Both the position numbers and the translations under genes were made by a program. From a virus, in IMG/VR virus record IMGVR_UViG_3300023110_000023, positions 1 to 64,000 of that record: DNA of 64,000 nt; one strand, 5' to 3'. The notes under the pieces are model-generated. The model ran no database searches, was not told the origin of the DNA, and worked only from the letters and a program-made list of their open reading frames with translations. Each line of letters begins with the position of its first letter. The first letter of the stretch is position 1. This document shows positions 2,100-57,255 of the stretch, one piece after another.

Positions 2100-2180
2100 C
2101 ATCCTATAAACATATTGATATTCCAATGTCTTGAGATTGGTGGGCAATTCTTCAAAAACCACAGCACACCAGCGTGGTGC

Positions 2181-3698
2181 GTGGTGGAAGACTTCCAACG
2201 GCTCTCACAGCAACAGGCGAGGGAGATTGCCCTGTTCCCCGACCGCTGGAGTTCGTATTTTCGCACGATTGACGGGAAGGCGTTCCGCTTGGATGCTCGC
2301 CCATACCTTGAGGAAGTGTATCGCCACTTCTCCGCCACCAGCAAGAACTCCGCCACGAAGGTCATCGTGTTGAAGTGTTCTCGGAAGGTTGAGAAGACCG
2401 AAACCATCTGCAACATTCTGCTGTACGCGTTGCTCAATATCCCGTATTTCAACGCAGTCTATACCGCGCCCCGCCAGCCCCAAGTGAGCCGATTCGTTGA
2501 GGAACGATTCAACGGTGCGATGATGTCCAGCGTGAACAACGGATGCCTGTTGAAGCAACGAGTCAAGTCATCTGTGAGCCACCAAACCTTTGATGTCGGT
2601 GCAAGGTCGCTGAACCACTTCTATGCCTATTCCAATTGGGGAGATGCTCACGGTCTGCTGGGGATTGAGGCTGACCTGTGTTGCATTGACGAATATCAAG
2701 ACAGCGACCCCGATGTGCTTCCGATGCTGATGGAGATGCTCGCTCAATCGGACTACAAATGGGTCATCGTCAGCGGGACAGCCCGTGAGCAAGGCTCGGA
2801 GTTTTGGAGGCTGTGGAACACCTCCACGCAAGCCGAGTGGGATGGTGAGAAGTGGATTCACAAAGAGGCAGAAGCCCCGAACATCATCGGGTATCACATC
2901 ACCCAATTGATGCACCCCGACATCACGACCGAAGACATTGAACAAAAGCGAATCACATACACGCCCCGCAGATTCGCGAACGAGGTTCTCGGTGAGTTCT
3001 TTTCGGGTTCAGCCAAACCGCTGACTCTTGACCAAGCCTTGACGATTATTGAGCCCGATATGGACATCGTGGATTCAGTCGTTCCACCCAGCGAATCGTT
3101 CATCGGAATTGATTGGGGGTTGGCGACAACCATCGTGGTCATGGACAAAGACGGCAACATTCTCAACGCCATGAAGGTGGAATCGCGTGGAGAAGACGAC
3201 TTTGATGAAGTCGCCATCATCAAGGACATCATTCTCCGATACAACGCTGTCCAAGTGGTCTGCGACATCGGCTACGGTGCGAGGCAAGTCCGTGAACTCC
3301 AGCGTGAGTTCGGAGAGCGTGTGAAGTCGTGCTATTATGCGAGCCGACCGATGACTCCGTTTGAATATAAGAAACGGGACTCCAATCGCAACCTCATTTT
3401 CATGGCTGTCGTGGACAGAACCACATACCTTGAGCAAACGATTGAGGCAATCAAGAACGGTGAGATTCGCTTGCCTTTCAAGGACAGAAGGCTGGAGTGG
3501 GTGCTGGATGAGTTCTGTGCAATCAATTCGTCAGCCGAAGCAGATATGCGGTCGGGTCGGCAGATTCGTGGACAGCAATTGACCAAATACGGTCGCGATG
3601 GCGATGACCACGCTCTCCACGCTCTCCTGTATGCGAGGCTTGCCCATGAGATGAATGACGATGGTGGGCTTCCGACCATGCGAACCTTCGGAGTTTGA
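2181..3698 (+). CDS. terL: terminase large subunit (lambda GpA-like)
   Basis: PYLEEVY, variant Walker A KCSRKVEKTE, Walker B CCIDEYQD, coupling SGTA, nuclease GIDWG and DGDDHALHA; GTG 30 nt after TTCAAAAACC box (2151). Confidence 0.9.
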   Translation: MVEDFQRLSQQQAREIALFPDRWSSYFRTIDGKAFRLDARPYLEEVYRHFSATSKNSATKVIVLKCSRKVEKTETICNILLYALLNIPYFNAVYTAPRQPQVSRFVEERFNGAMMSSVNNGCLLKQRVKSSVSHQTFDVGARSLNHFYAYSNWGDAHGLLGIEADLCCIDEYQDSDPDVLPMLMEMLAQSDYKWVIVSGTAREQGSEFWRLWNTSTQAEWDGEKWIHKEAEAPNIIGYHITQLMHPDITTEDIEQKRITYTPRRFANEVLGEFFSGSAKPLTLDQALTIIEPDMDIVDSVVPPSESFIGIDWGLATTIVVMDKDGNILNAMKVESRGEDDFDEVAIIKDIILRYNAVQVVCDIGYGARQVRELQREFGERVKSCYYASRPMTPFEYKKRDSNRNLIFMAVVDRTTYLEQTIEAIKNGEIRLPFKDRRLEWVLDEFCAINSSAEADMRSGRQIRGQQLTKYGRDGDDHALHALLYARLAHEMNDDGGLPTMRTFGV

Positions 3699-3823
3699 TA
3701 CACCACGAAGTTCAAGTTTATCAATGTTTGTTTATCTCACCATTTTTGCATATCAATATATTTATATGCTGACATGATTTGGGACATGGTGAAGCGGGTA
3801 TGACCCGCTGACATGGTGATAAC

Positions 3824-4093
3824 ATGGAAGAAAAACAGGAAAAGGTCGCAACGCTTCACAAGCGATGCGAGGATTGCGAAAAATACCCCCGATTCGCTTC
3901 GGCGGTCGGGTGCTGGAACAGGGACTTCGTGTGCAATTGCACCGAAGGCAATATGCTCATGAATGGGCGACGCGTACACCGAGTTCATATCGGGCGATAC
4001 GAAGACTTCGTTGGGCAACCTCCACGCAGGGCGATTGACGACCCCGATGTTGCTGACCCGCTTCCACCGAGAAAACCCTCGCTCTTTGAGTGA
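3824..4093 (+). CDS. small Cys-rich hypothetical protein
   Basis: GGTGA RBS; CEDC...CNC motifs. Confidence 0.6.
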   Translation: MEEKQEKVATLHKRCEDCEKYPRFASAVGCWNRDFVCNCTEGNMLMNGRRVHRVHIGRYEDFVGQPPRRAIDDPDVADPLPPRKPSLFE

Positions 4094-4135
4094 AAAAGCG
4101 GTTCTGTGATAAACCCCCTTTGTGATGGTTGAGGC

Positions 4136-4342
4136 ATGGAAGCCTCCACGCTCTTGCTCATTCTCACGGCAGTCGCAGTCCCAACAGCCCTTTGGCTGTT
4201 TGAACGCTACAAGCGTGTCATGGCTGACGGCAAAATCACCCTTGACGAAGTGCTTGAGGAAGGCAAAGCCCTCCTTGACAAAGCAGAAGAAGTCAAGGAA
4301 GCCGTTGAAGACATCGTGGAAGAATCCGAGAAGACGGAGTGA
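4136..4342 (+). CDS. small single-TM membrane protein (holin-like candidate)
   Basis: N-terminal hydrophobic helix, acidic tail; ATG 30 nt after GTGATAAACC box. Confidence 0.6.
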   Translation: MEASTLLLILTAVAVPTALWLFERYKRVMADGKITLDEVLEEGKALLDKAEEVKEAVEDIVEESEKTE

Positions 4343-4812
4343 TTCATCACATGGCTCGCATGACAGACCCGCTTGCCCCTGCTCGCAGGGGGAACTCGTT
4401 CAACGACCGCTTGATGTTGATAGTCGGTGTCCCTGTGGTTCTGTGCTGGGTTGCTTTCGCTTGCTTGGTCATTTGGAACGGACTTCGTGATGACGCTGTG
4501 CTTGACCGTGTTGAAGAATACGGTCTGTTGCTCGCCATCATCGCCACGCCAGCCATGCTGATTCTCAATTCCATCGTGGAACTGTGGAAGACCGAGCAAG
4601 GCAACGAGATTCAAATGCAACCCGACCAAATCCGCGCGGCGATTGAGCAAGGAATCGCACAGGCTGAACACAAGCGTATGCTGGCTATCAAAGACCAAGA
4701 ACACGCTCAAGTTCTCGCTATTGAGAAGGCTCGCCACGAACTGACGGGTCGTATTGATGGACAGCATCAAGACTGTGCTTTGGAAGACGACCCATCCGAA
4801 TCGGAGGAATGA
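4339..4812 (+). CDS. two-TM membrane protein with coiled-coil tail
   Basis: Hydrophobic segments LMLIVGVPVVLCWVAFACLVIW and YGLLLAIIATPAMLIL; exact start uncertain. Confidence 0.65.
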   Translation: MIHHMARMTDPLAPARRGNSFNDRLMLIVGVPVVLCWVAFACLVIWNGLRDDAVLDRVEEYGLLLAIIATPAMLILNSIVELWKTEQGNEIQMQPDQIRAAIEQGIAQAEHKRMLAIKDQEHAQVLAIEKARHELTGRIDGQHQDCALEDDPSESEE

Positions 4813-5084
4813 GCATGACCGAGAAAGACCCAACGCTCGCTTGGGTTCAAGCCATCCATCGCGACCTCACTACGCTCAAGGACAACCACTTGGCTCATGT
4901 GGATGCTGACCTCCAAATGATGAAGCGGGACATCGCTGAAATCAAGGAAGACTTGGCCGAAGTCAAGCCAATGATGGACAACATTCGTGTGTTCTCCAGC
5001 AAGTTCGGTCGGAAGATGCTCATGGTCTTATTGATTTCAATATCATTCACCATCGGCGCACCGATAGGAATGGAAACGCTTTGA
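4809..5084 (+). CDS. coiled-coil protein with C-terminal TM (XhlA-like architecture)
   Basis: Heptad region then MLMVLLISISFTIGA; ATGA overlap. Confidence 0.6.
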   Translation: MSMTEKDPTLAWVQAIHRDLTTLKDNHLAHVDADLQMMKRDIAEIKEDLAEVKPMMDNIRVFSSKFGRKMLMVLLISISFTIGAPIGMETL

Positions 5085-5108
5085 AACCCAACCGCACATT
5101 GACGGTTC

Positions 5109-5336
5109 ATGCCTCGCAAGTTCGTTGAGTGTCCCGTGTGCAAACATCAACGCTGGACAGTCGCTAAACGACCCAAGTGCAAACGGGAACTACACAAAGG
5201 AACACTTGACCCCGAACCACGAATGTTTGAAGTCCCGTTCAACGAAACGCCCGATGAATACACCATCTCGGACACCCCGCCAGCACGAAAATCACCAAAT
5301 TGGTGGGAAAATCATCTTGATAGACCGAAGCATTGA
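5109..5336 (+). CDS. Zn-ribbon hypothetical protein
   Basis: CPVC...C...H; ATG 30 nt after CTTTGAAACC box. Confidence 0.6.
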   Translation: MPRKFVECPVCKHQRWTVAKRPKCKRELHKGTLDPEPRMFEVPFNETPDEYTISDTPPARKSPNWWENHLDRPKH

Positions 5337-5345
5337 TATACCCCC
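5317..5345 (+). promoter_or_regulatory. class-E tandem-box promoter (drives putative ncRNA)
   Basis: TTGATAgaccgaagcaTTGATATACCCCC; boxes 16 bp apart. Confidence 0.75.
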
Positions 5346-5362
5346 ACCTGCTGTCATGGATT

Positions 5363-5807
5363 GTTGGGGCAACAACCCCGACCGAAGCGATACCTCCCGA
5401 TGCGAGTCGGGGGGTGAATTGGAAACACAGGATGGCGAGCAACGCCCCTTAGCAGACAGGTGCAACGCACCTTGCAGACAGGGACAACGCTCTCATCCCA
5501 TACGATACAGGTTGAATGTTAGCCCTGCCCGACCCCAATGTTTTGATGCGACACTCGCTTCGGTGAGTCCCTCCACACTTCTTGGGCATACGGTAAGAAT
5601 CCCCTTGCCTCCCTGTCGTGTGTCATCGGCTCAATCGGTCGGGGAAACCCGACTCCCTCAAGAGTGTGGCTGTGGCTGACCAAGTGTAAGGGCGGGGAGA
5701 GATACCCCGTGAACCTGCTTGCGAAGGTAAAGGCTCGTAAGGCAAGGCTAAGGTGATATTAGTGCTGGGAAGGTTCGCCCCAGCCCGATGTTGTGTTTCC
5801 TCCCAAC
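5363..5807 (+). ncRNA. putative large structured non-coding RNA (~445 nt)
   Basis: Starts at +30 of class-E promoter; 5' GTTGGGG pairs with TCCCAAC (5801-5807); many long-range helices, UUCG and GAAA tetraloops; no credible ORF. Confidence 0.7.
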
Positions 5808-5899
5808 CGCCCAAACATACACTCAAAGTCAATTCAAGAGCGTAGTGGGAAAACGAGTCATGTCGTTCTTAACCGCTTGGATGGAGAGGAAGGAGGTTC

Positions 5900-5998
5900 A
5901 TAGCCCGCCAATCCCGAAAAGGTTGGATGGGGGTTGGTTTCGCAGTCCCACCCCAATGCCTTTGGGCAATACGGTGGTTTCGGTCGGCTGTTGCCTCA
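5900..5998 (+). ncRNA. putative small three-hairpin RNA upstream of portal
   Basis: Late-type box GTTCTTAACC at 5865; three consecutive hairpins with G-U pairs. Confidence 0.35.
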
Positions 5999-6033
5999 AC
6001 ATCGTTAAAAACGGCACAGCCCAACGAACATTC

Positions 6034-8424
6034 ATGTCGGAGAGGCGTAGCCGTTTTCCATTTTGGCGAAGGCGAGGTTCGCCCGAAGACGCTAACCGCA
6101 TGACCGAGATGTTCAACCAGCCCGAATCGGAGTTCCGCTGGGATGGGAAGACGCTCGCATCAATGTCCCGAATCGGCAATTCCACGAAGACGGGCAAGAG
6201 CGTGAACGGCTTTGAACCGATTGGCGACATGGACTTGATTCGTGAAATCTCGCTCAAGAACGAGGTGGTCAATGCGATTCTCCGCAGAACCGTTGATGAC
6301 ACGCTGGGCAACGGCTACGAGTTTGTTCTGCCCGATGGGAAGGAGGAAGGAGATGCTGGTCAATTGGCGAGGGTGCGTGAGTTCTTCCGAGCCCCCAACC
6401 CCGATGACAACGGGGATGAGTGGCTTGAATCCCTCATCTATGACCTCCAATTGTTCGGTGATGCCTATTTGGAACTTGACGGCTCGGAAGACAAACAGAT
6501 GAGCGATGACGGAACGAAGTGGACATACGGTGGCGAATTGGTGTCAATATGGAACATTCCCACCGAAACGATGAAACTGCTTCCAGCGAACAAACGCCCA
6601 GCCCCACCAGCGATGGCGTATGTGCAGAAAATTGACGGCTTGAAGCGTGAGTTCTCATCCAGCAAAATCCTCCATGTGTCCAAGTTCAAGCATGGCCGAG
6701 CATACGGCACATCGCCCATCGTTCCCCTGCTGAATGTGATTGCTGGGCATCTCAACCTGTCAAATTATCTCAACGAACTCTATACGGGAACGCTTCCCAA
6801 GACCATCCTCAATGTCGGGGACATCTCCAATGGCGAGATGAAAGCGATGCTCTCACTCCTTGAACAGCAATTGGCTGGAGGCAAGTCGCCCTTCGGTTTG
6901 GTCGCTGTGAACGGAGGAACGGGGTTCAATATGCACAAACTGTTGGACTCAACGAGGGAAGGCGCGCAATTGGACTTGATTCACTATTATCGCGAGGAAA
7001 TCTGTGCGGTCTTCGGCATCCCACCCATGAAATTGGGCTGGGTGCAGACGGGGAAGATGTCCAACCCCGAACAGCAATTGGATGCGTGGTATGATGTCAT
7101 TGAATCCTTCCATAACCGAATTGAATCGCTCATTAACAACCGTATTCTTCCCCTATTGGACATCACCGATTGGGTCTTCAAGTTCGTGTCCATCCGACCA
7201 AAGCGGGACAATGAGATAGCCGAAACGCAATCGCGTCAAGCACAGGCAATCTCCAATCTCCGACAGGAAGGTGTCATCTCCATCAACGAGGCTCGGAACT
7301 TCTTGGGTCTTGAGCGACTTGACTTGGCTGACGCAGACGACCCGATGTTCCTGTCGCCCAAGTTATCCATCAACAAAGGCAAGGTCAATGGCGGTGGCGA
7401 GGAAACGGCGGATTCCAATGACTCATCTCCATTGACACCTCCATCTCTTGCTGAATTGTTCCCCCCACCCGAAGCACCCGACAACGAAGGTGCGAAACTT
7501 GGCGGGATTCCTCCATGCACCGTTCCTGTTGATATTGAACTCAATAGCAACACAACGGGGCTCATGGCGAATCGGAGAATGAAGCAGAACGATGAATACG
7601 AGGCTCTCATCACCACGAACTCGCTGGAACTTCTCGCTCAATTCACCGACCTTCAAAGTCAGTTCGCCGTTGATGTCTTGGATGCCCTTGACAAAATGTT
7701 CGCAGACGGAGATGAAGCGGTGCAGATGCCGAATGTGGATTTGAAGTCGGTGCGAGCATACAGACGCAAGGCGGATATTGACCTCAATCAAATTGAATCA
7801 GCCATCGTTGAGATTGACACCCGAATCGCTGACACGATTGGTCGTCAAAACTTGATGGCGACAGCGGTTTTGACCGATTCGTTTGGCGAGTCGCTGGAAC
7901 TGACGCTGGGTGGAACTGCGATTGATGTTGCACTCAACGCAGACGACCTCTCGGCCATCGCTTATTGGAATGGTCGCTGGACACTCCCTGCCTTAAGAAA
8001 CACGCTGGGGGCTCACAGGAACGCCCTGCTCGGTGTCTTTGAGGCTATGGTGGGTCAAGGGCAGTCTTGGCGATGGGCGAAGACGGAGATGCGTTCTTTG
8101 ATTGACCCAACGGGGTCGCGATACCCAGCATATTGGTATGAACGCATCGCCCGAACCGAAACCCGAAGGGTCGTGGAGAACGCTCACCTATCGGGCTTGA
8201 GGAAGGCTGGCTTCCAAAAGGTTGAGCGAATCGTGGTCGTTGATGAACGAACCGACCGTGATTTGTGCGCGCCCTTTGAGAACGCCATTTACCCAATCGC
8301 TGAATCGCGAAGTGTTGTTCCAGCACACCCGAATTGCCGATGCACATTCGTTGCGTATGCTGGCGACAAAGAGCCTATTGACTCCGATACGATTCTCGTT
8401 CCCGATGTGGAGGGCTCGGAATGA
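6034..8424 (+). CDS. portal protein fused to MuF/SPP1 gp7-like head morphogenesis domain
   Basis: Portal motifs LQLFGDAYLE, YGTSPI, ICAVFGIPPMKLG, SINEAR; C-terminal RIARTET...HPNCRC (MuF); ATG 30 nt after GTTAAAAACGG. Confidence 0.9.
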   Translation: MSERRSRFPFWRRRGSPEDANRMTEMFNQPESEFRWDGKTLASMSRIGNSTKTGKSVNGFEPIGDMDLIREISLKNEVVNAILRRTVDDTLGNGYEFVLPDGKEEGDAGQLARVREFFRAPNPDDNGDEWLESLIYDLQLFGDAYLELDGSEDKQMSDDGTKWTYGGELVSIWNIPTETMKLLPANKRPAPPAMAYVQKIDGLKREFSSSKILHVSKFKHGRAYGTSPIVPLLNVIAGHLNLSNYLNELYTGTLPKTILNVGDISNGEMKAMLSLLEQQLAGGKSPFGLVAVNGGTGFNMHKLLDSTREGAQLDLIHYYREEICAVFGIPPMKLGWVQTGKMSNPEQQLDAWYDVIESFHNRIESLINNRILPLLDITDWVFKFVSIRPKRDNEIAETQSRQAQAISNLRQEGVISINEARNFLGLERLDLADADDPMFLSPKLSINKGKVNGGGEETADSNDSSPLTPPSLAELFPPPEAPDNEGAKLGGIPPCTVPVDIELNSNTTGLMANRRMKQNDEYEALITTNSLELLAQFTDLQSQFAVDVLDALDKMFADGDEAVQMPNVDLKSVRAYRRKADIDLNQIESAIVEIDTRIADTIGRQNLMATAVLTDSFGESLELTLGGTAIDVALNADDLSAIAYWNGRWTLPALRNTLGAHRNALLGVFEAMVGQGQSWRWAKTEMRSLIDPTGSRYPAYWYERIARTETRRVVENAHLSGLRKAGFQKVERIVVVDERTDRDLCAPFENAIYPIAESRSVVPAHPNCRCTFVAYAGDKEPIDSDTILVPDVEGSE

Positions 8425-8831
8425 AACCCGATGACAACCCGTTCCTCAAAGCAAGTGCATGGTGGAGGCAACGAACCAAACCATCCATCGTTGATTCCAA
8501 GACCACGCGAGAACTTGACAGGCTCGCACATCTCATTCTCACAGATGCGGTTAAACGAGCCCCTGTGCTGACGGGCGCGCTTCGTGCTTCGGGTCGTGTG
8601 AGGCGAATCAACAAATACCGCAGGGCGATTGAGTTCGGTGGTGCTGGAACAGGCGTGGACTACGCTTCGTATGTTGAGTTTGGGACAATGCGTACGCGCC
8701 CCCAACCGTTCTTGCGACCAGCGTTGGAACGAAACAAAAAAGCCATCGCGAAGGGCATGGGCAAGTCTGCCCAACGAGTCTTCGGTGGGGCTGTTTTCAA
8801 CATCATGGGAACAATCAAGGTGGGTGAATGA
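8421..8831 (+). CDS. HK97 gp10-like tail/neck component
   Basis: APVLTGALRAS, YASYVEFGT, PQPFLRPA. Confidence 0.85.
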   Translation: MKPDDNPFLKASAWWRQRTKPSIVDSKTTRELDRLAHLILTDAVKRAPVLTGALRASGRVRRINKYRRAIEFGGAGTGVDYASYVEFGTMRTRPQPFLRPALERNKKAIAKGMGKSAQRVFGGAVFNIMGTIKVGE

Positions 8832-8980
8832 ATGGATGGATTTGGCGAGGCTGTTGCTATTTTGCTGACGAAGTGTTCCCACATGGATTTTGTCGCAAGT
8901 GCTGGATTGCACACGGAATGCCGAAGGCGATGAACATGATTCAATACCCCGAAGCACAGGAGATGATTGACAATGGCTGA
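8828..8980 (+). CDS. small Cys/His-rich protein (50 aa, not in ORF track)
   Basis: MNGWIWRGCCYFADEVFPHGFCRKCWIAHG...; ATGA overlap, GGTGA RBS. Confidence 0.5.
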   Translation: MNGWIWRGCCYFADEVFPHGFCRKCWIAHGMPKAMNMIQYPEAQEMIDNG

Positions 8981-10004
8981 CAGCGTGGACAAGGGGCAAT
9001 TCGTATCGTGGACAACCGAGAAGGGTCGCTATGTCGGTCAAGTGCTGTCCGTTATCACATCGGGGCGCGTTGCTGTGGTGTCGGCATCGGGCGGTCAAGA
9101 AACCATTGAAGCCAGCACCGAGAACGCGGTCGCGAATGTTCGCATCTATGTGAACAACGAAGACGGCACATTCAGCAGAAGCGACAGGAACGCCCCTGTG
9201 CGTGTCGCCATGCTTCGCATCATCTCCGAGCCCGAAACCAAAGCGGTGTCGGCTGGAGTGCGAAAGACGCTCAAGCAGAAGGCAGAAGACCATAACGAGA
9301 AGGTGAACAACGCATCATCCAAGAAAACCACTACACGCACCCTCGTAGCCGTGTTTGAACGCGGTGTGGGCGCGTATCAAACGAATCCTCAATCGGTGCG
9401 ACCAACCGTGTCCAGCGCGGAACAATGGGCATACGCAAGAGTGAACTCGTTCCTGTACGCGTTGAGGAATGGTCGCTTTCGTGGAGGCAAGCACGACACC
9501 GACCTGTTGCCCAAAGGTCATCCCCAATCCTCCAAGAGCGTGGATGACGAACCCGAACTTCCTGTGGAAGAATCGGTATTGGATTCAATAACCAAAGCAC
9601 CGAAGACCAATTTTCCGAAGCGCGGTGATGACAAAAAGGTGAGTCTGCGAAACTCGCAATACGACCAATTCCCGCTGGCCGAAGCCGAAAAACTGCGAAC
9701 TGAATGGCCGATGATTTGGAGGCGTGGAGGCAACATTCTCGGCAACACTCAATTTCAACGATTGAAGAAGGTTCACGAACAGATGGGCGAAGTCAAGACC
9801 CCAACAGATGAGAAGGCTGTGCGTCTGCGTGAGGCTTGGTCTGCTCGGCACTACAAAGACTTCCGACTCGCTGGAGTCGTGGCTCAAATCAAGTGGCTCA
9901 TGGTCGGCAGTCGTGGGCTGTCGTTCATGCGAAAAGTCATCTCCGATGAGAAGAAACGCCTTCGGGACAGGGAGAAGAACGGAGATTCTGACCAAAACCA
10001 TTGA
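8973..10004 (+). CDS. multi-domain head-associated protein with DUF5824-like domain
   Basis: VFERGVGAY...EQWAYARVNSF motif; lies between portal and protease. Confidence 0.6.
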   Translation: MADSVDKGQFVSWTTEKGRYVGQVLSVITSGRVAVVSASGGQETIEASTENAVANVRIYVNNEDGTFSRSDRNAPVRVAMLRIISEPETKAVSAGVRKTLKQKAEDHNEKVNNASSKKTTTRTLVAVFERGVGAYQTNPQSVRPTVSSAEQWAYARVNSFLYALRNGRFRGGKHDTDLLPKGHPQSSKSVDDEPELPVEESVLDSITKAPKTNFPKRGDDKKVSLRNSQYDQFPLAEAEKLRTEWPMIWRRGGNILGNTQFQRLKKVHEQMGEVKTPTDEKAVRLREAWSARHYKDFRLAGVVAQIKWLMVGSRGLSFMRKVISDEKKRLRDREKNGDSDQNH

Positions 10005-16558: not shown

Positions 16559-16621
16559 TTTGAGCGATTAAGACATTGATACGACAAAGGTTTGATATAC
16601 CAGCATCGGCTGGTTCATATC

Positions 16622-16843
16622 ATGTCGGACAACCGAACACCGAAGAAGGGACACACCGAATGGGGAACAGGTCTTGGGCGAATCCACCTCGTTCATTCCA
16701 TGACAGGTCGCTGTATGGGATGCAAGAAGAAAGTCGCCAAGTGGGTCGGCCAGCAAGACATGACTGTTCAAGAAGTCAAGGAAACCGACTTCGGCCTTTG
16801 TTCCTTCGTGAGCGACTTTTGGCTTGACCAATTGACGAACTGA
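16622..16843 (+). CDS. small Cys/His accessory protein (class-E cassette)
   Basis: Boxes at 16576/16592; ATG at +30. Confidence 0.6.
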   Translation: MSDNRTPKKGHTEWGTGLGRIHLVHSMTGRCMGCKKKVAKWVGQQDMTVQEVKETDFGLCSFVSDFWLDQLTN

Positions 16844-54583: not shown

Positions 54584-57255
54584 TTGTCGCTGTGGAATAT
54601 CACGAAGACCGCGATTTGACGGTTAGGCTACGGGTGAAGTCGCTGGATGGCGACTCGTTGGTGCTGAATGTTGGAGGCTGTGTGCCTCGCTTTTGGACTG
54701 AAAAAGACCCCAGCAAACTGCGTCTGCCGAAGGGAATCAAGTTCAAGGCATCCGACTACACCTCCATTGAGGGCGCGCCCCTGTGGGAAGTGCGAGCCAA
54801 ACTTCCATCGGAACTCCGTGAGATTCGTGAGGTTCTGTTCCCATCGTATTGCGCCGATGTTCCCTTCGCCAATTTGGTTCGCTGGATTTACGATTGGACT
54901 GCGGTTATTGAAGTCAATACCGATGTTCTGCACCAGCCACAGATTCGCCCGATTCACATTCGCCCCAGCGATGAAGACCCAGCGAACTTCAAACTCAATC
55001 CGCTTTATTTTGACATTGAAACCGCTGATTCGCTGGACACCGAGAACACGCCCGAACGCGTGGTGTCCATCGCCATCTATGACCAACGCACAGATACCCA
55101 CGAATGTGCGACAATTCGCCATACGAGCGAGCGACAGGTCAAGCGGTTCTTATCCAGCCAAGAGGCGTTGCACAGCGTTGTTGAGCATGAGAACGACATT
55201 CCACCGCTGAACTCCGACCGCATCAAAGTCTTCAACATTGAAGGCGATGACGATGACGAGCGAGAGGCTGGATTGCTGTGGTGGTTTCATCACAGGCTTG
55301 AACACTACGACCCCGACCTCATCGCTGGGCAGAACATCATTGACTACGACATACCGTATCTCCGAAACCGTTGCCGAATCCAACGCAACAACATGGAACG
55401 GCTTCACATGGGCAGTCCACCCGTGTGGGCGACCTATCCGAAACTGTTCCGAAAGAGGCGTGGATTGATGCCTCCGTTTGACACGAAAAAGGTGTATGCC
55501 GAGCAAGTTCAAGGCTCGGCGGCGACTACGGGGCAAGCGAGTCTTGGATGGATGGGGGCGACCACGCTGGGCTACGGCAAAGTTCCACGCACCTCAATCA
55601 AGGAGATGATGGACAGCGACCCGCTGATGCTGGTCATTTACAACATTTGGGACAATGTGGTGGCTCATCGTTGCATGGACACGCTGGACTTGGTGGCGTT
55701 TTATCAAGCGAAGGTGGCGTTTCACAATTCCACGATTCACCACGCTCACAGCAACATGATGCTCATTGAGGACATGATGGGACACCTGCTCAAAGAACGC
55801 AAGGTCGTGATGCCCTCGCTGGACACCGTGAGGGCGCGATTGACGGGCGAAGGGATTGAGCAAGGTGGATTCGTGATGGAAGCACCATCGGGCATTTGGA
55901 GGAACGCTATTGAATTGGATAACTCAATGGAATACCCCAGCGTCATCATCTCATGCAACGCAGACCTGTCCACGAAGGTTCGTGAGGAAGACTATCCCGA
56001 TGGCTTCCCATTCCCTGTGGCTCGCACTCCAGCGGGTCGCATTTACCGACAGGACATTGAGGGACTGATGCCCGCGTTCCTTCGCAGACTCGCCAGCGAG
56101 CGTGAGATTCTGCGAGCCAACATGAGCGAAGCCGAAGACAAAGGCGACCACGCTCTTGCTGACAAACTCAACAAAAAGCAACGGGTCATGAAGGAGAACA
56201 TGAACTCTTGGTATGGTGTGCTGGGTTCGGGCAGAACCGAGAAGACAGCCCAACGACCGTTCCGCATGACCGACCCCGAAATCGGCTCGGACATCACCGA
56301 GATTGCGAGGCTACACAACGATTGGAACAAACAGATGATTGAGAAGACAACCATGTGGTTTCACGATGACGGAGTGTTCCCCGAACCATTGATACCCCAT
56401 AACATTGATAAACCGTCAGCCCCCCGTGTATCGGAGTCCGAGTCGGGCGGGTGGCTGGAACTCCGCTTCCGTGTGCTGTATCAAGACACCGATTCGTGTA
56501 AAATGTGCATAGAGAATCATGACGAGGCTGAACAGGCCATCCGACCATTCACCGAACAGGACATCTATTCCATCGGCAATATGCTGACGGTGATGCTCAA
56601 CGATTCGTTCCATGAGTTCGTGCAGACGACCATCGGCATCCCACGAAACGAGTTCTTCAAGGTCAAGCCCGATGCCTATTATTCTCGCTATTTTCAATGG
56701 GGAGTCAAGAAGCGATACGCGTACATGGACTTCAACGGGAAGAAGGGCTATCGTGGCGTGGAGATGCGAAGAAGTTCCTCCCCTCAAATCGTAAAAGACG
56801 CACAGCAAGCCATTTTTGACAGCATCCTCAACGGGTGTTCCAAGACCGAATTGAACTCAATTATCCGCGATATTGAAGCCAATATGCTGGATGAAACCAA
56901 GACTCCAGCGTTGAACTTCGGTCAGCCAATGGGAATCAAGAAAGAAGGAACGATGGCTCACAAATCAGCGATGTGGACAAACACCAATCTCGGAACTCAA
57001 TTCGCTTTGGGCGATAAGCCGATGTTGTTCATCGCATCCAACACACCCGCTGGAACGCCCTCAAACCGTGTCGTTGCTGTGGAGTGGGGAGATGACCCAG
57101 CAAGTCTTGGCGTAGTCGTGGACAGGAAGGCAAGCATCACGAAGTTCTTCAACGATTCAAACTCGTTCTCGCAGATATTGGGGGCGATGGGGACATCGTG
57201 GGAACAGGCGATTCTCGGCATCGGCAAGACCTCAATGGGTGATTGGTTCAAATGA
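54562..57255 (+). CDS. polB: family B DNA polymerase
   Basis: FDIET, NIIDYDIPYL, YNIWD, DNSMEYPS, KENMNSWYG, YQDTDS, KKRY, RGVEMRRS. Confidence 0.95.
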   Translation: MAWKPFLIVAVEYHEDRDLTVRLRVKSLDGDSLVLNVGGCVPRFWTEKDPSKLRLPKGIKFKASDYTSIEGAPLWEVRAKLPSELREIREVLFPSYCADVPFANLVRWIYDWTAVIEVNTDVLHQPQIRPIHIRPSDEDPANFKLNPLYFDIETADSLDTENTPERVVSIAIYDQRTDTHECATIRHTSERQVKRFLSSQEALHSVVEHENDIPPLNSDRIKVFNIEGDDDDEREAGLLWWFHHRLEHYDPDLIAGQNIIDYDIPYLRNRCRIQRNNMERLHMGSPPVWATYPKLFRKRRGLMPPFDTKKVYAEQVQGSAATTGQASLGWMGATTLGYGKVPRTSIKEMMDSDPLMLVIYNIWDNVVAHRCMDTLDLVAFYQAKVAFHNSTIHHAHSNMMLIEDMMGHLLKERKVVMPSLDTVRARLTGEGIEQGGFVMEAPSGIWRNAIELDNSMEYPSVIISCNADLSTKVREEDYPDGFPFPVARTPAGRIYRQDIEGLMPAFLRRLASEREILRANMSEAEDKGDHALADKLNKKQRVMKENMNSWYGVLGSGRTEKTAQRPFRMTDPEIGSDITEIARLHNDWNKQMIEKTTMWFHDDGVFPEPLIPHNIDKPSAPRVSESESGGWLELRFRVLYQDTDSCKMCIENHDEAEQAIRPFTEQDIYSIGNMLTVMLNDSFHEFVQTTIGIPRNEFFKVKPDAYYSRYFQWGVKKRYAYMDFNGKKGYRGVEMRRSSSPQIVKDAQQAIFDSILNGCSKTELNSIIRDIEANMLDETKTPALNFGQPMGIKKEGTMAHKSAMWTNTNLGTQFALGDKPMLFIASNTPAGTPSNRVVAVEWGDDPASLGVVVDRKASITKFFNDSNSFSQILGAMGTSWEQAILGIGKTSMGDWFK

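Follow-up and report, generated by a model that had tools for sequence, protein, structure and literature searches.

The DNA analysed here (the window) is a 64-kb part of a 78.3-kb IMG/VR record, estimated to be 97% complete, of a tailed virus from salt-marsh and marine samples. It raises the question of what is made from the interval in front of its portal gene, where a promoter whose other copies in the genome stand before leaderless orphan genes is followed by neither a start codon nor an open reading frame. A reading of the DNA letters by themselves (the sequence-only reading) had proposed an undescribed large non-coding RNA with its own promoter, in an archaeal-looking virus, and this proposal is supported, the RNA having no Rfam match and being strongly expressed. 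There is little doubt that the + strand from 5363 to about 6000 is a real, independent and structured RNA gene, and it is the extent, the fold and the role of its product that had to be worked out.

The gene had been described as lying between terminase and portal, which is only loosely correct, because the terminase gene is followed by five small ORFs, the last of which (a zinc-ribbon-like ORF) and the portal gene flank the RNA gene (Table 1). The zinc-ribbon-like ORF has no Pfam or PHROG family and is kept in relatives with and without the RNA, its N-terminal half being conserved with codon-like variation. The host of the virus is probably an archaeon, because a TATA-like box stands 29-31 nt before the start of almost every gene examined, which is the leaderless archaeal pattern, and because the nearest counterparts of its family-B polymerase are those of haloarchaeal tailed viruses (about 24% identity). 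The capsid protein gave no hint of the host in the protein atlas, and no relatives were found in GTDB genomes when these were searched via the portal protein.

The interval before the portal gene and its promoter

Positions 5337-6033, from the zinc-ribbon-like ORF to the portal ATG at 6034, contain no reading frame that is common to the window and to the two related loci that carry the same RNA (L001 and L004), and the indels among these homologous sequences have lengths that are not multiples of three. A conserved protein frame, which the sequence-only reading had named as one result that would speak against an RNA, is thus not shared by the three sequences. An ATG equivalent to 6034 is kept in all relatives and, because the portal gene starts there and no frame is shared ahead of it, the gap of about 700 nt is considered non-coding. 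The portal start given by the ORF finder (5788) was rejected, since L001 and L004 have AAG in place of the in-frame ATG at 5860, and 1-nt indels occur upstream in L001. That start is 246 nt too early and the resulting extension (5788-6033) reads through the 3' part of the RNA gene, so that automatic annotation would be likely to hide it. An open frame of 184 codons (5125-5679) was attributed to chance, since L004 and L001 have no conserved counterpart.

Table 1. Features of the RNA gene, its neighbours and the contigs that cover it (positions in the window).
Feature	Position	Strand	Remarks
Large terminase gene	2115-3698		followed by five small ORFs, the portal-MuF fusion gene and, 3' of it, protease and capsid genes
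Zinc-ribbon-like ORF, 75 aa	5109-5336	+	last of the five small ORFs; directly 5' of the RNA gene
Tandem-box promoter	5317-5340	+	TTGATA-N10-TTGATATA, exact match; second box 5333
RNA gene, about 638 nt	5363 to about 6000	+	5' end from promoter spacing; 3' end from terminal helix and adapter-marked fragment end 5993
P1 hairpin	5363-5369 with 5376-5382	+	begins at the predicted first transcribed base
5' module, nearly invariant	5382-5421	+	CCGAAG segment, P2, then GUGAAUUG segment; identical in L001 and L004
P2 hairpin	5391-5401 with 5406-5416	+	GCGA loop; invariant
Central domain	5421-5800	+	closed by P3 (5421-5429 with 5792-5800)
P5	5430-5440 with 5489-5498	+	compensatory changes
P6	5499-5511 with 5612-5622	+	compensatory changes
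UUCG hairpin	5553-5568	+	stem differs in L004
P7	5592-5609	+	supported in the model
P8	5623-5627 with 5752-5756	+	supported in the model
GAAA hairpin	5638-5653	+	stem differs in L004
P9	5764-5784	+	compensatory changes
3' domain	5803-5937	+	P10 (5803-5813 with 5928-5937) encloses four hairpins, P11-P14; several loops invariant
Terminal helix, 3' strand	5940-6000	+	5940-5943 with 5387-5390; 5979-5987 with 5378-5386; 5989-6000 with 5363-5374
Portal TATA-like box	6005-6012	+	29 nt 5' of ATG 6034, spacing as in other promoters; conserved in L001 and L004
Portal-MuF fusion gene	6034-8424	+	true start ATG 6034; Pfam Phage_portal 1e-32
RNA contig, run X13	5396-5930		k-mer depth 311
RNA contig, run X16	5387-5930		k-mer depth 122
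RNA contig, run X20	5482-5930		k-mer depth 206
RNA contig, run X23	5396-5876		k-mer depth 348

There are 13 copies in the window of the tandem-box pattern seen before the RNA, where 0.28 would be expected; the best of them are without exception + strand matches, and in nearly all copies the second box is followed by an ATG at +29 to +31. At the copy in question position +30 is G5363, as the sequence-only reading had stated for this promoter, which it assigned to its class E. This base is the first of the P1 hairpin, and there is neither an ATG nor an ORF. The RNA gene has the two marks of the class E cassettes, the tandem box and a product whose first base lies at about +30; ten other tandem-box cassettes that were examined encode small proteins without a Pfam or PHROG family. 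The geometry is the same in a second group of RNAs (group B, see below), where the box at 2481 of L002 leads to G2511, likewise the first base of a hairpin, and the tandem box is conserved before the RNA in L001, L004, L002, L008 and L067.

Two further observations concern this promoter type. CGAAGC is found in the spacer of most tandem-box promoters, and the spacer motif GACCGAAGC of the promoter of the RNA gene (5323-5331) is present again inside the RNA just past P1 (5380-5388); this recurrence may reflect a protein-binding site that is used on both DNA and RNA, or may be the trace of a promoter duplication. Inside the polymerase ORF (56389-56460) there is a tandem-box-like promoter with one mismatch and no ATG at +30, followed by an inverted repeat starting GGAGTCC, an element that may represent a promoter within the ORF or a further small RNA.

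Transcripts in salt-marsh metatranscriptomes

Eight salt-marsh metatranscriptome runs, X13-X16 and X20-X23, contain part of the window, and four of them, perhaps from one campaign, were placed on 3500-9500. In all four the RNA contigs (Table 1) are identical to the window and far deeper than the separate contigs of the flanks (terminase-side ORFs and portal), which have depths of 2-11; depth is here one k-mer value per assembled contig, a crude measure that fixes neither ends nor strand. Across 5930-6050 the contig depth falls from more than 100 to less than 10. DNA carry-over would hardly account for the 30-100-fold excess of RNA depth, which was seen in each of the four runs. The excess also weighs against a DNA-level element (a packaging site, an origin or an array of protein-binding sites) or a decayed gene, a reading that is scarcely credible: packaging sites are frequent near terminase genes and the CGAAGC motif of the promoter spacer recurs within the element, but the compensatory changes described below pass through G-U intermediates, workable on one strand only, and the homologues share no ORF remnants.

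The drop in depth also bears on the possibility that the RNA is a long structured 5' leader which controls portal expression in cis. Such a leader would fit the position of the RNA, directly 5' of the portal gene and on the same strand, with no strong oligo-T terminator between the two. It is nevertheless very improbable, because depth decreases more than 10-fold before the portal gene, which has its own conserved TATA-like box at -29, because the two ends of the RNA pair together, and because homologous 5' modules are present at a locus that has no portal gene, so that module and portal gene are not linked.

With respect to strand and ends, a small contig of run X20 (5901-5993, depth 42) has Illumina adapter sequence immediately past 5993, and the other adapter stands at the 5482 end of the main X20 contig. 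This orientation puts read 1 on the minus strand, which is the signature of a + strand RNA if the library was dUTP-stranded. In one contig an adapter stands immediately ahead of 5387. A number of RNA contigs end at 5930 and no high-depth contig covers 5363-5386, features that were not counted as evidence for an end. The RNA most likely spans 5363 to about 6000, its 3' end being placed near 6000, just 5' of the portal promoter, because the terminal helix reaches there, and the fragment end at 5993 agrees with this. The sequence-only reading had ended the element at 5807 and had expected a discrete transcript of 5363-5807 in metatranscriptomes: deep contigs from 5387 or 5396 to 5930 between shallow flanks agree with a discrete transcript, but its span is longer, since conservation, the 3' domain and the terminal helix go on to about 6000. 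A multi-domain structured RNA of more than 500 nt, with covarying helices in three domains, is thus expressed as a discrete RNA from viral DNA.

Architecture and likeness to known RNAs

The full body of the RNA was compared in three sequences (the window, L004 and L001, the last two being close relatives). By simple count of the 113 modelled pairs, 89 do not vary, 14 vary with compensation, 4 vary on one side and 6 break in at least one sequence. For the covariation that the sequence-only reading had proposed to look for in homologues, there are thus 14 pairs in favour and six against, in only three full-body sequences. Compensatory changes affect P3 (at two positions), P5, P6, P8b and P9, and P3, P5 and P6 are retained in L001, which lacks about 220 nt of the central domain. 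For the 3' domain, RNAalifold gave 40 pairs on the three sequences, 4 of them compensatory, and a covariance model of this domain (R1) scores 173-185 bits in the same three sequences. MFE z-scores are modest for the window, both for 5363-5807 (-3.5 on the + strand versus -2.4 on the minus strand) and for the RNA over 631 nt (-1.8 with 20 shuffles, the strands not being separated), and they are -6.2 for L001 and -4.5 for L004.

This model departs in several respects from the fold that had been proposed from one sequence. All the complementary segments listed then do exist where they were placed, but L004, the full-length homologue, does not keep six of the eight long-range helices, namely the closing helix (5363/5801) and those at 5376/5406, 5477/5610, 5508/5712, 5573/5657 and 5603/5740. 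The helix at 5421/5791 stands as P3 and is the sole member of that list with compensatory changes (the two positions mentioned above), whereas at 5447/5747 the segments are complementary and the comparison with homologues is ambiguous. No proposed crossing helix survives, and the description as a multi-pseudoknot RNA is not supported. The UUCG and GAAA hairpins recur in L004 with different stem sequences, and the G-U bias in favour of the + strand was also found, with 14 of 118 modelled pairs being G-U and a folding energy of -130 kcal/mol on the + strand versus -116 for the mirror on the minus strand.

At the 5' end, P1 has five different sequences in five lineages, all of which form a hairpin; in four sequences of the A and G types it is 100% paired with variation in 4 of 6 pairs, a result that 118 of 500 shuffles equalled. 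The ends of the RNA are able to pair in a helix of 20-25 bp that appears in MFE folds, and the duplex between the first 30 nt and the 3' tail has an energy of -43 kcal/mol, against -24 +/- 3 with shuffled 5' ends. An equally strong duplex of partly different sequence is formed in L004 and L001, where the proximal helix of 9 bp is continuous; that of the window is divided by an inserted hairpin of 35 nt (5944-5978), absent from the other two. In the group B and G-type RNAs the 5'-3' terminal duplex was no better than shuffled. P1 and the distal terminal helix are mutually exclusive, the former being family-wide and the latter restricted to group A, and the two may represent alternative folds or a folding intermediate. 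A hairpin almost identical to P1 of the window (stem core and CAACAA loop) is found within the group B RNA at L002:2815-2832, a resemblance that suggests reuse of modules.

The extreme conservation of about 40 nt across otherwise unrelated RNA bodies, and the adapter that directly precedes 5387, inside this 5' module, in one contig, would suit a ribozyme or self-processing RNA with its catalytic part in the invariant module or in the core of the 3' domain. This explanation is regarded as quite improbable, since none of the known ribozyme models matches, one adapter junction in an assembled contig is no proof of cleavage, and 5387 sits within the terminal helix in group A.

Searches for known families gave no assignment. 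Rfam 15 (4227 families) at gathering thresholds found nothing in the whole window or in 15 related loci, nor did a scan of the RNA regions of L001, L002, L004 and L008, and with permissive E-values 5200-6000 gave only a chance-level snoRNA match on the minus strand. The set includes GOLLD, ROOL, pRNA, RNase P, SRP RNA, tmRNA, 6S, OLE, group I and II introns and small self-cleaving ribozymes, none of which matched, and this cmscan-type check agrees with the earlier failure to recognise RNase P, SRP, tmRNA or intron signatures. A tRNA/tmRNA scan found none, a DNA search of GenBank phages with 5300-5900 gave no match, and no such RNA is described in the searchable literature on magroviruses, on the transcriptome of a haloarchaeal tailed virus, on archaeal-virus transcriptomes or on viral structured RNAs. 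Structured-RNA candidates have been obtained from IMG/VR intergenic regions (8495 unnamed and uncharacterised, with a mean of 67 nt; PMC10690425); they were drawn from the data source used here and are objects of the same type as this RNA, but are short, and short pieces of this RNA could be among them.

The scale of the RNA had been compared with that of GOLLD and ROOL, and the comparison is sustained by its length (about 640 nt), its several domains, its location on viral DNA and its deep contigs in RNA libraries. ROOL and GOLLD are likewise multi-domain orphan RNAs of 550-800 nt, encoded by viruses or mobile DNA, patchy among relatives and with a function that is unknown or only structural. 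The differences are that their Rfam models do not match, that the host is here probably archaeal, and that this RNA has a dedicated promoter of the leaderless type, a 5' module common to different bodies and paired termini. Orphan RNAs on this scale, among them ROOL, GOLLD and OLE, are rare, and each has led to new RNA structural biology.

This likeness leads to the possibility of a self-assembling architectural RNA that would form homo-oligomeric particles through loop-loop contacts, as its similar size, viral origin, multi-domain build and invariant loops might suggest. A possible long-range contact bears on it: 5415-5421 is complementary to the P11 loop (5830-5836), the complementarity being retained in L004 via wobble changes and existing as a 9-bp version in the G002-type RNA (see below). 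A self-complementary AAUU core is present in both the junction (5417-5420) and the P11 loop (5831-5834), so that pairing could be intra- or intermolecular. Self-assembly appears unlikely, given that no ROOL or GOLLD covariance model matches and that the AAUU complementarity fits an intramolecular contact too.

Distribution among relatives and possible role

Portal-anchored searches recovered about 30 loci, and the zinc-ribbon protein as an anchor added no new ones. The same RNA (group A) is found in the window, L004 (on the same contig as L017) and L001. Group B, composed of L002 (also L009 and L031) and L008, has the same promoter, first hairpin and CCGAAG segment, and then largely different sequence. 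In other relatives the slot between the zinc-ribbon and portal genes holds other cassettes, some of them on the opposite strand with orphan proteins, and in L026 it is empty. Relatives without the RNA, complete genomes included, share portal proteins at 62-70% identity. The 3' domain is absent from the complete relatives G001, G002 and G004, and G001 and G004 lack the 5' module too. BLAST of the whole RNA against the complete relatives matched only the 5' module (5366-5424) in G002, at 88% identity with 40 nt at 97.5%, about 25 kb from the portal gene, with the same promoter ahead and about 760 nt of unrelated, strongly folding sequence behind. In the window, the slot equivalent to that of the G002 element is occupied by an orphan protein cassette.

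This second RNA cassette (L067:1440-2294, or G002:70832-71686 in a complete relative of 81.7 kb) is headed by the same promoter, a tandem box, and by an almost identical 5' module, and contains a 77-aa ORF (L067 1603-1836). The G002-type element is also present in L068-L071 and, as a variant, in L072, and its body has short exact blocks in common with group B. Model R1 matches group A only, apart from a weak minus-strand match in L005 (13.4 bits, E = 0.25); with filters off it gave only noise on the group B and G-type RNAs, and the 13.4 bits of L005 are only slightly above that noise. At L005:4440-4840, on the minus strand (the same contig as L003, L012 and L048), a leftward tandem-box promoter in the slot between the zinc-ribbon and portal genes has no ATG at +30, and the weak match lies in the roughly 300 nt that follow it; this element is perhaps a relative of the RNA that is short and inverted. 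Two other sets of matches were discarded: a degenerate P2-junction pattern gave four extra matches in viral contigs, all without the other parts of the module, and a 19-mer of the 3' domain gave four in GTDB genomes of unrelated bacteria, which the model attributed to chance.

The location of the RNA in the head-morphogenesis module, immediately 5' of the portal gene, and its abundance would be compatible with a packaging or assembly RNA that acts with the adjacent portal and terminase in head filling, in the manner of the phi29 pRNA, which is also virus-encoded, abundant and structured. That pRNA is, however, about 170 nt long and essential throughout its phage group, whereas the RNA of about 640 nt described here is missing in close relatives, among them the RNA-free genomes with 62-70% identical portals and the empty slot of L026, which is not the distribution expected of a pRNA. 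As the 5' module is also found at an unrelated locus and the pRNA covariance model gives no match, a role of this kind is very unlikely. Absence from complete relatives and presence of the 5' module at another locus indicate an accessory mobile cassette and not a core part of packaging. Protein cassettes of this type move as well. An orphan 73-aa protein encoded by a tandem-box cassette (window 16592-16843) is 59% identical to the slot protein of L010:2357-2630 and L018:2503-2764 (minus strand, inverted), and, because this protein occupies different slots in different genomes, promoter-bearing cassettes evidently move from slot to slot.

On balance, the locus probably encodes a stable, abundant, multi-domain RNA of about 640 nt which belongs to a new cassette-borne family of marine and salt-marsh tailed viruses and serves in trans as a scaffold or decoy, the last point, taken specifically, being possible but doubtful. 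The RNA is transcribed from the tandem-box promoter and most likely ends ahead of the portal gene's own promoter. A 5' hairpin comes first, then the module of about 40 nt that hardly varies, and the remainder folds into a central domain and a compact 3' domain, with ends able to pair; both the hairpin, placed at the predicted first transcribed base, and the pairing of the termini would protect the RNA from exonucleases. Contact sites or binding surfaces would be provided by the conserved 5' module and by those loops of the 3' domain that are purine-rich and invariant, and through them the RNA could bind a host or viral protein during infection, as its scaffold or decoy, in an accessory task of host takeover or counter-defence. 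A stoichiometric, trans-acting role is proposed because the RNA is both abundant and dispensable. Antisense regulation of viral genes was rejected, as complementary runs to other parts of the window reach at most 14 nt, against 11-15 nt in shuffled RNAs, no better than chance. The working model is closest to 6S and to protein-sponge RNAs (e.g., the CsrB type), which are stable and abundant and sequester proteins in trans, although no model of these matches and this RNA has neither a long double-stranded rod with a central bubble nor an evident array of repeated binding motifs.

A wider proposal, advanced only tentatively, is that these viruses carry modular RNA genes, in which a 5' head of about 60 nt (P1, CCGAAG, P2 and GUGAAUUG) is joined to interchangeable structured bodies of 300-700 nt, in promoter-bearing cassettes that move between slots and whose expression far exceeds that of viral mRNAs. 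No large structured non-coding RNA was found for archaeal tailed viruses in Rfam or in the searchable literature and, if such a class exists, it would be the first large structured RNA family described for them. The RNA is among the most abundant viral transcripts in public metatranscriptomes, and it offers handles for study in its defined promoter, its probable ends and the natural deletion variants that mark dispensable domains, and the near-invariance of its 5' module suggests a specific partner. It also shows that, in these viruses, mobile accessory cassettes can have RNA products besides proteins and, if the modular class is real, these RNAs would be the counterpart of accessory anti-defence or host-takeover genes.
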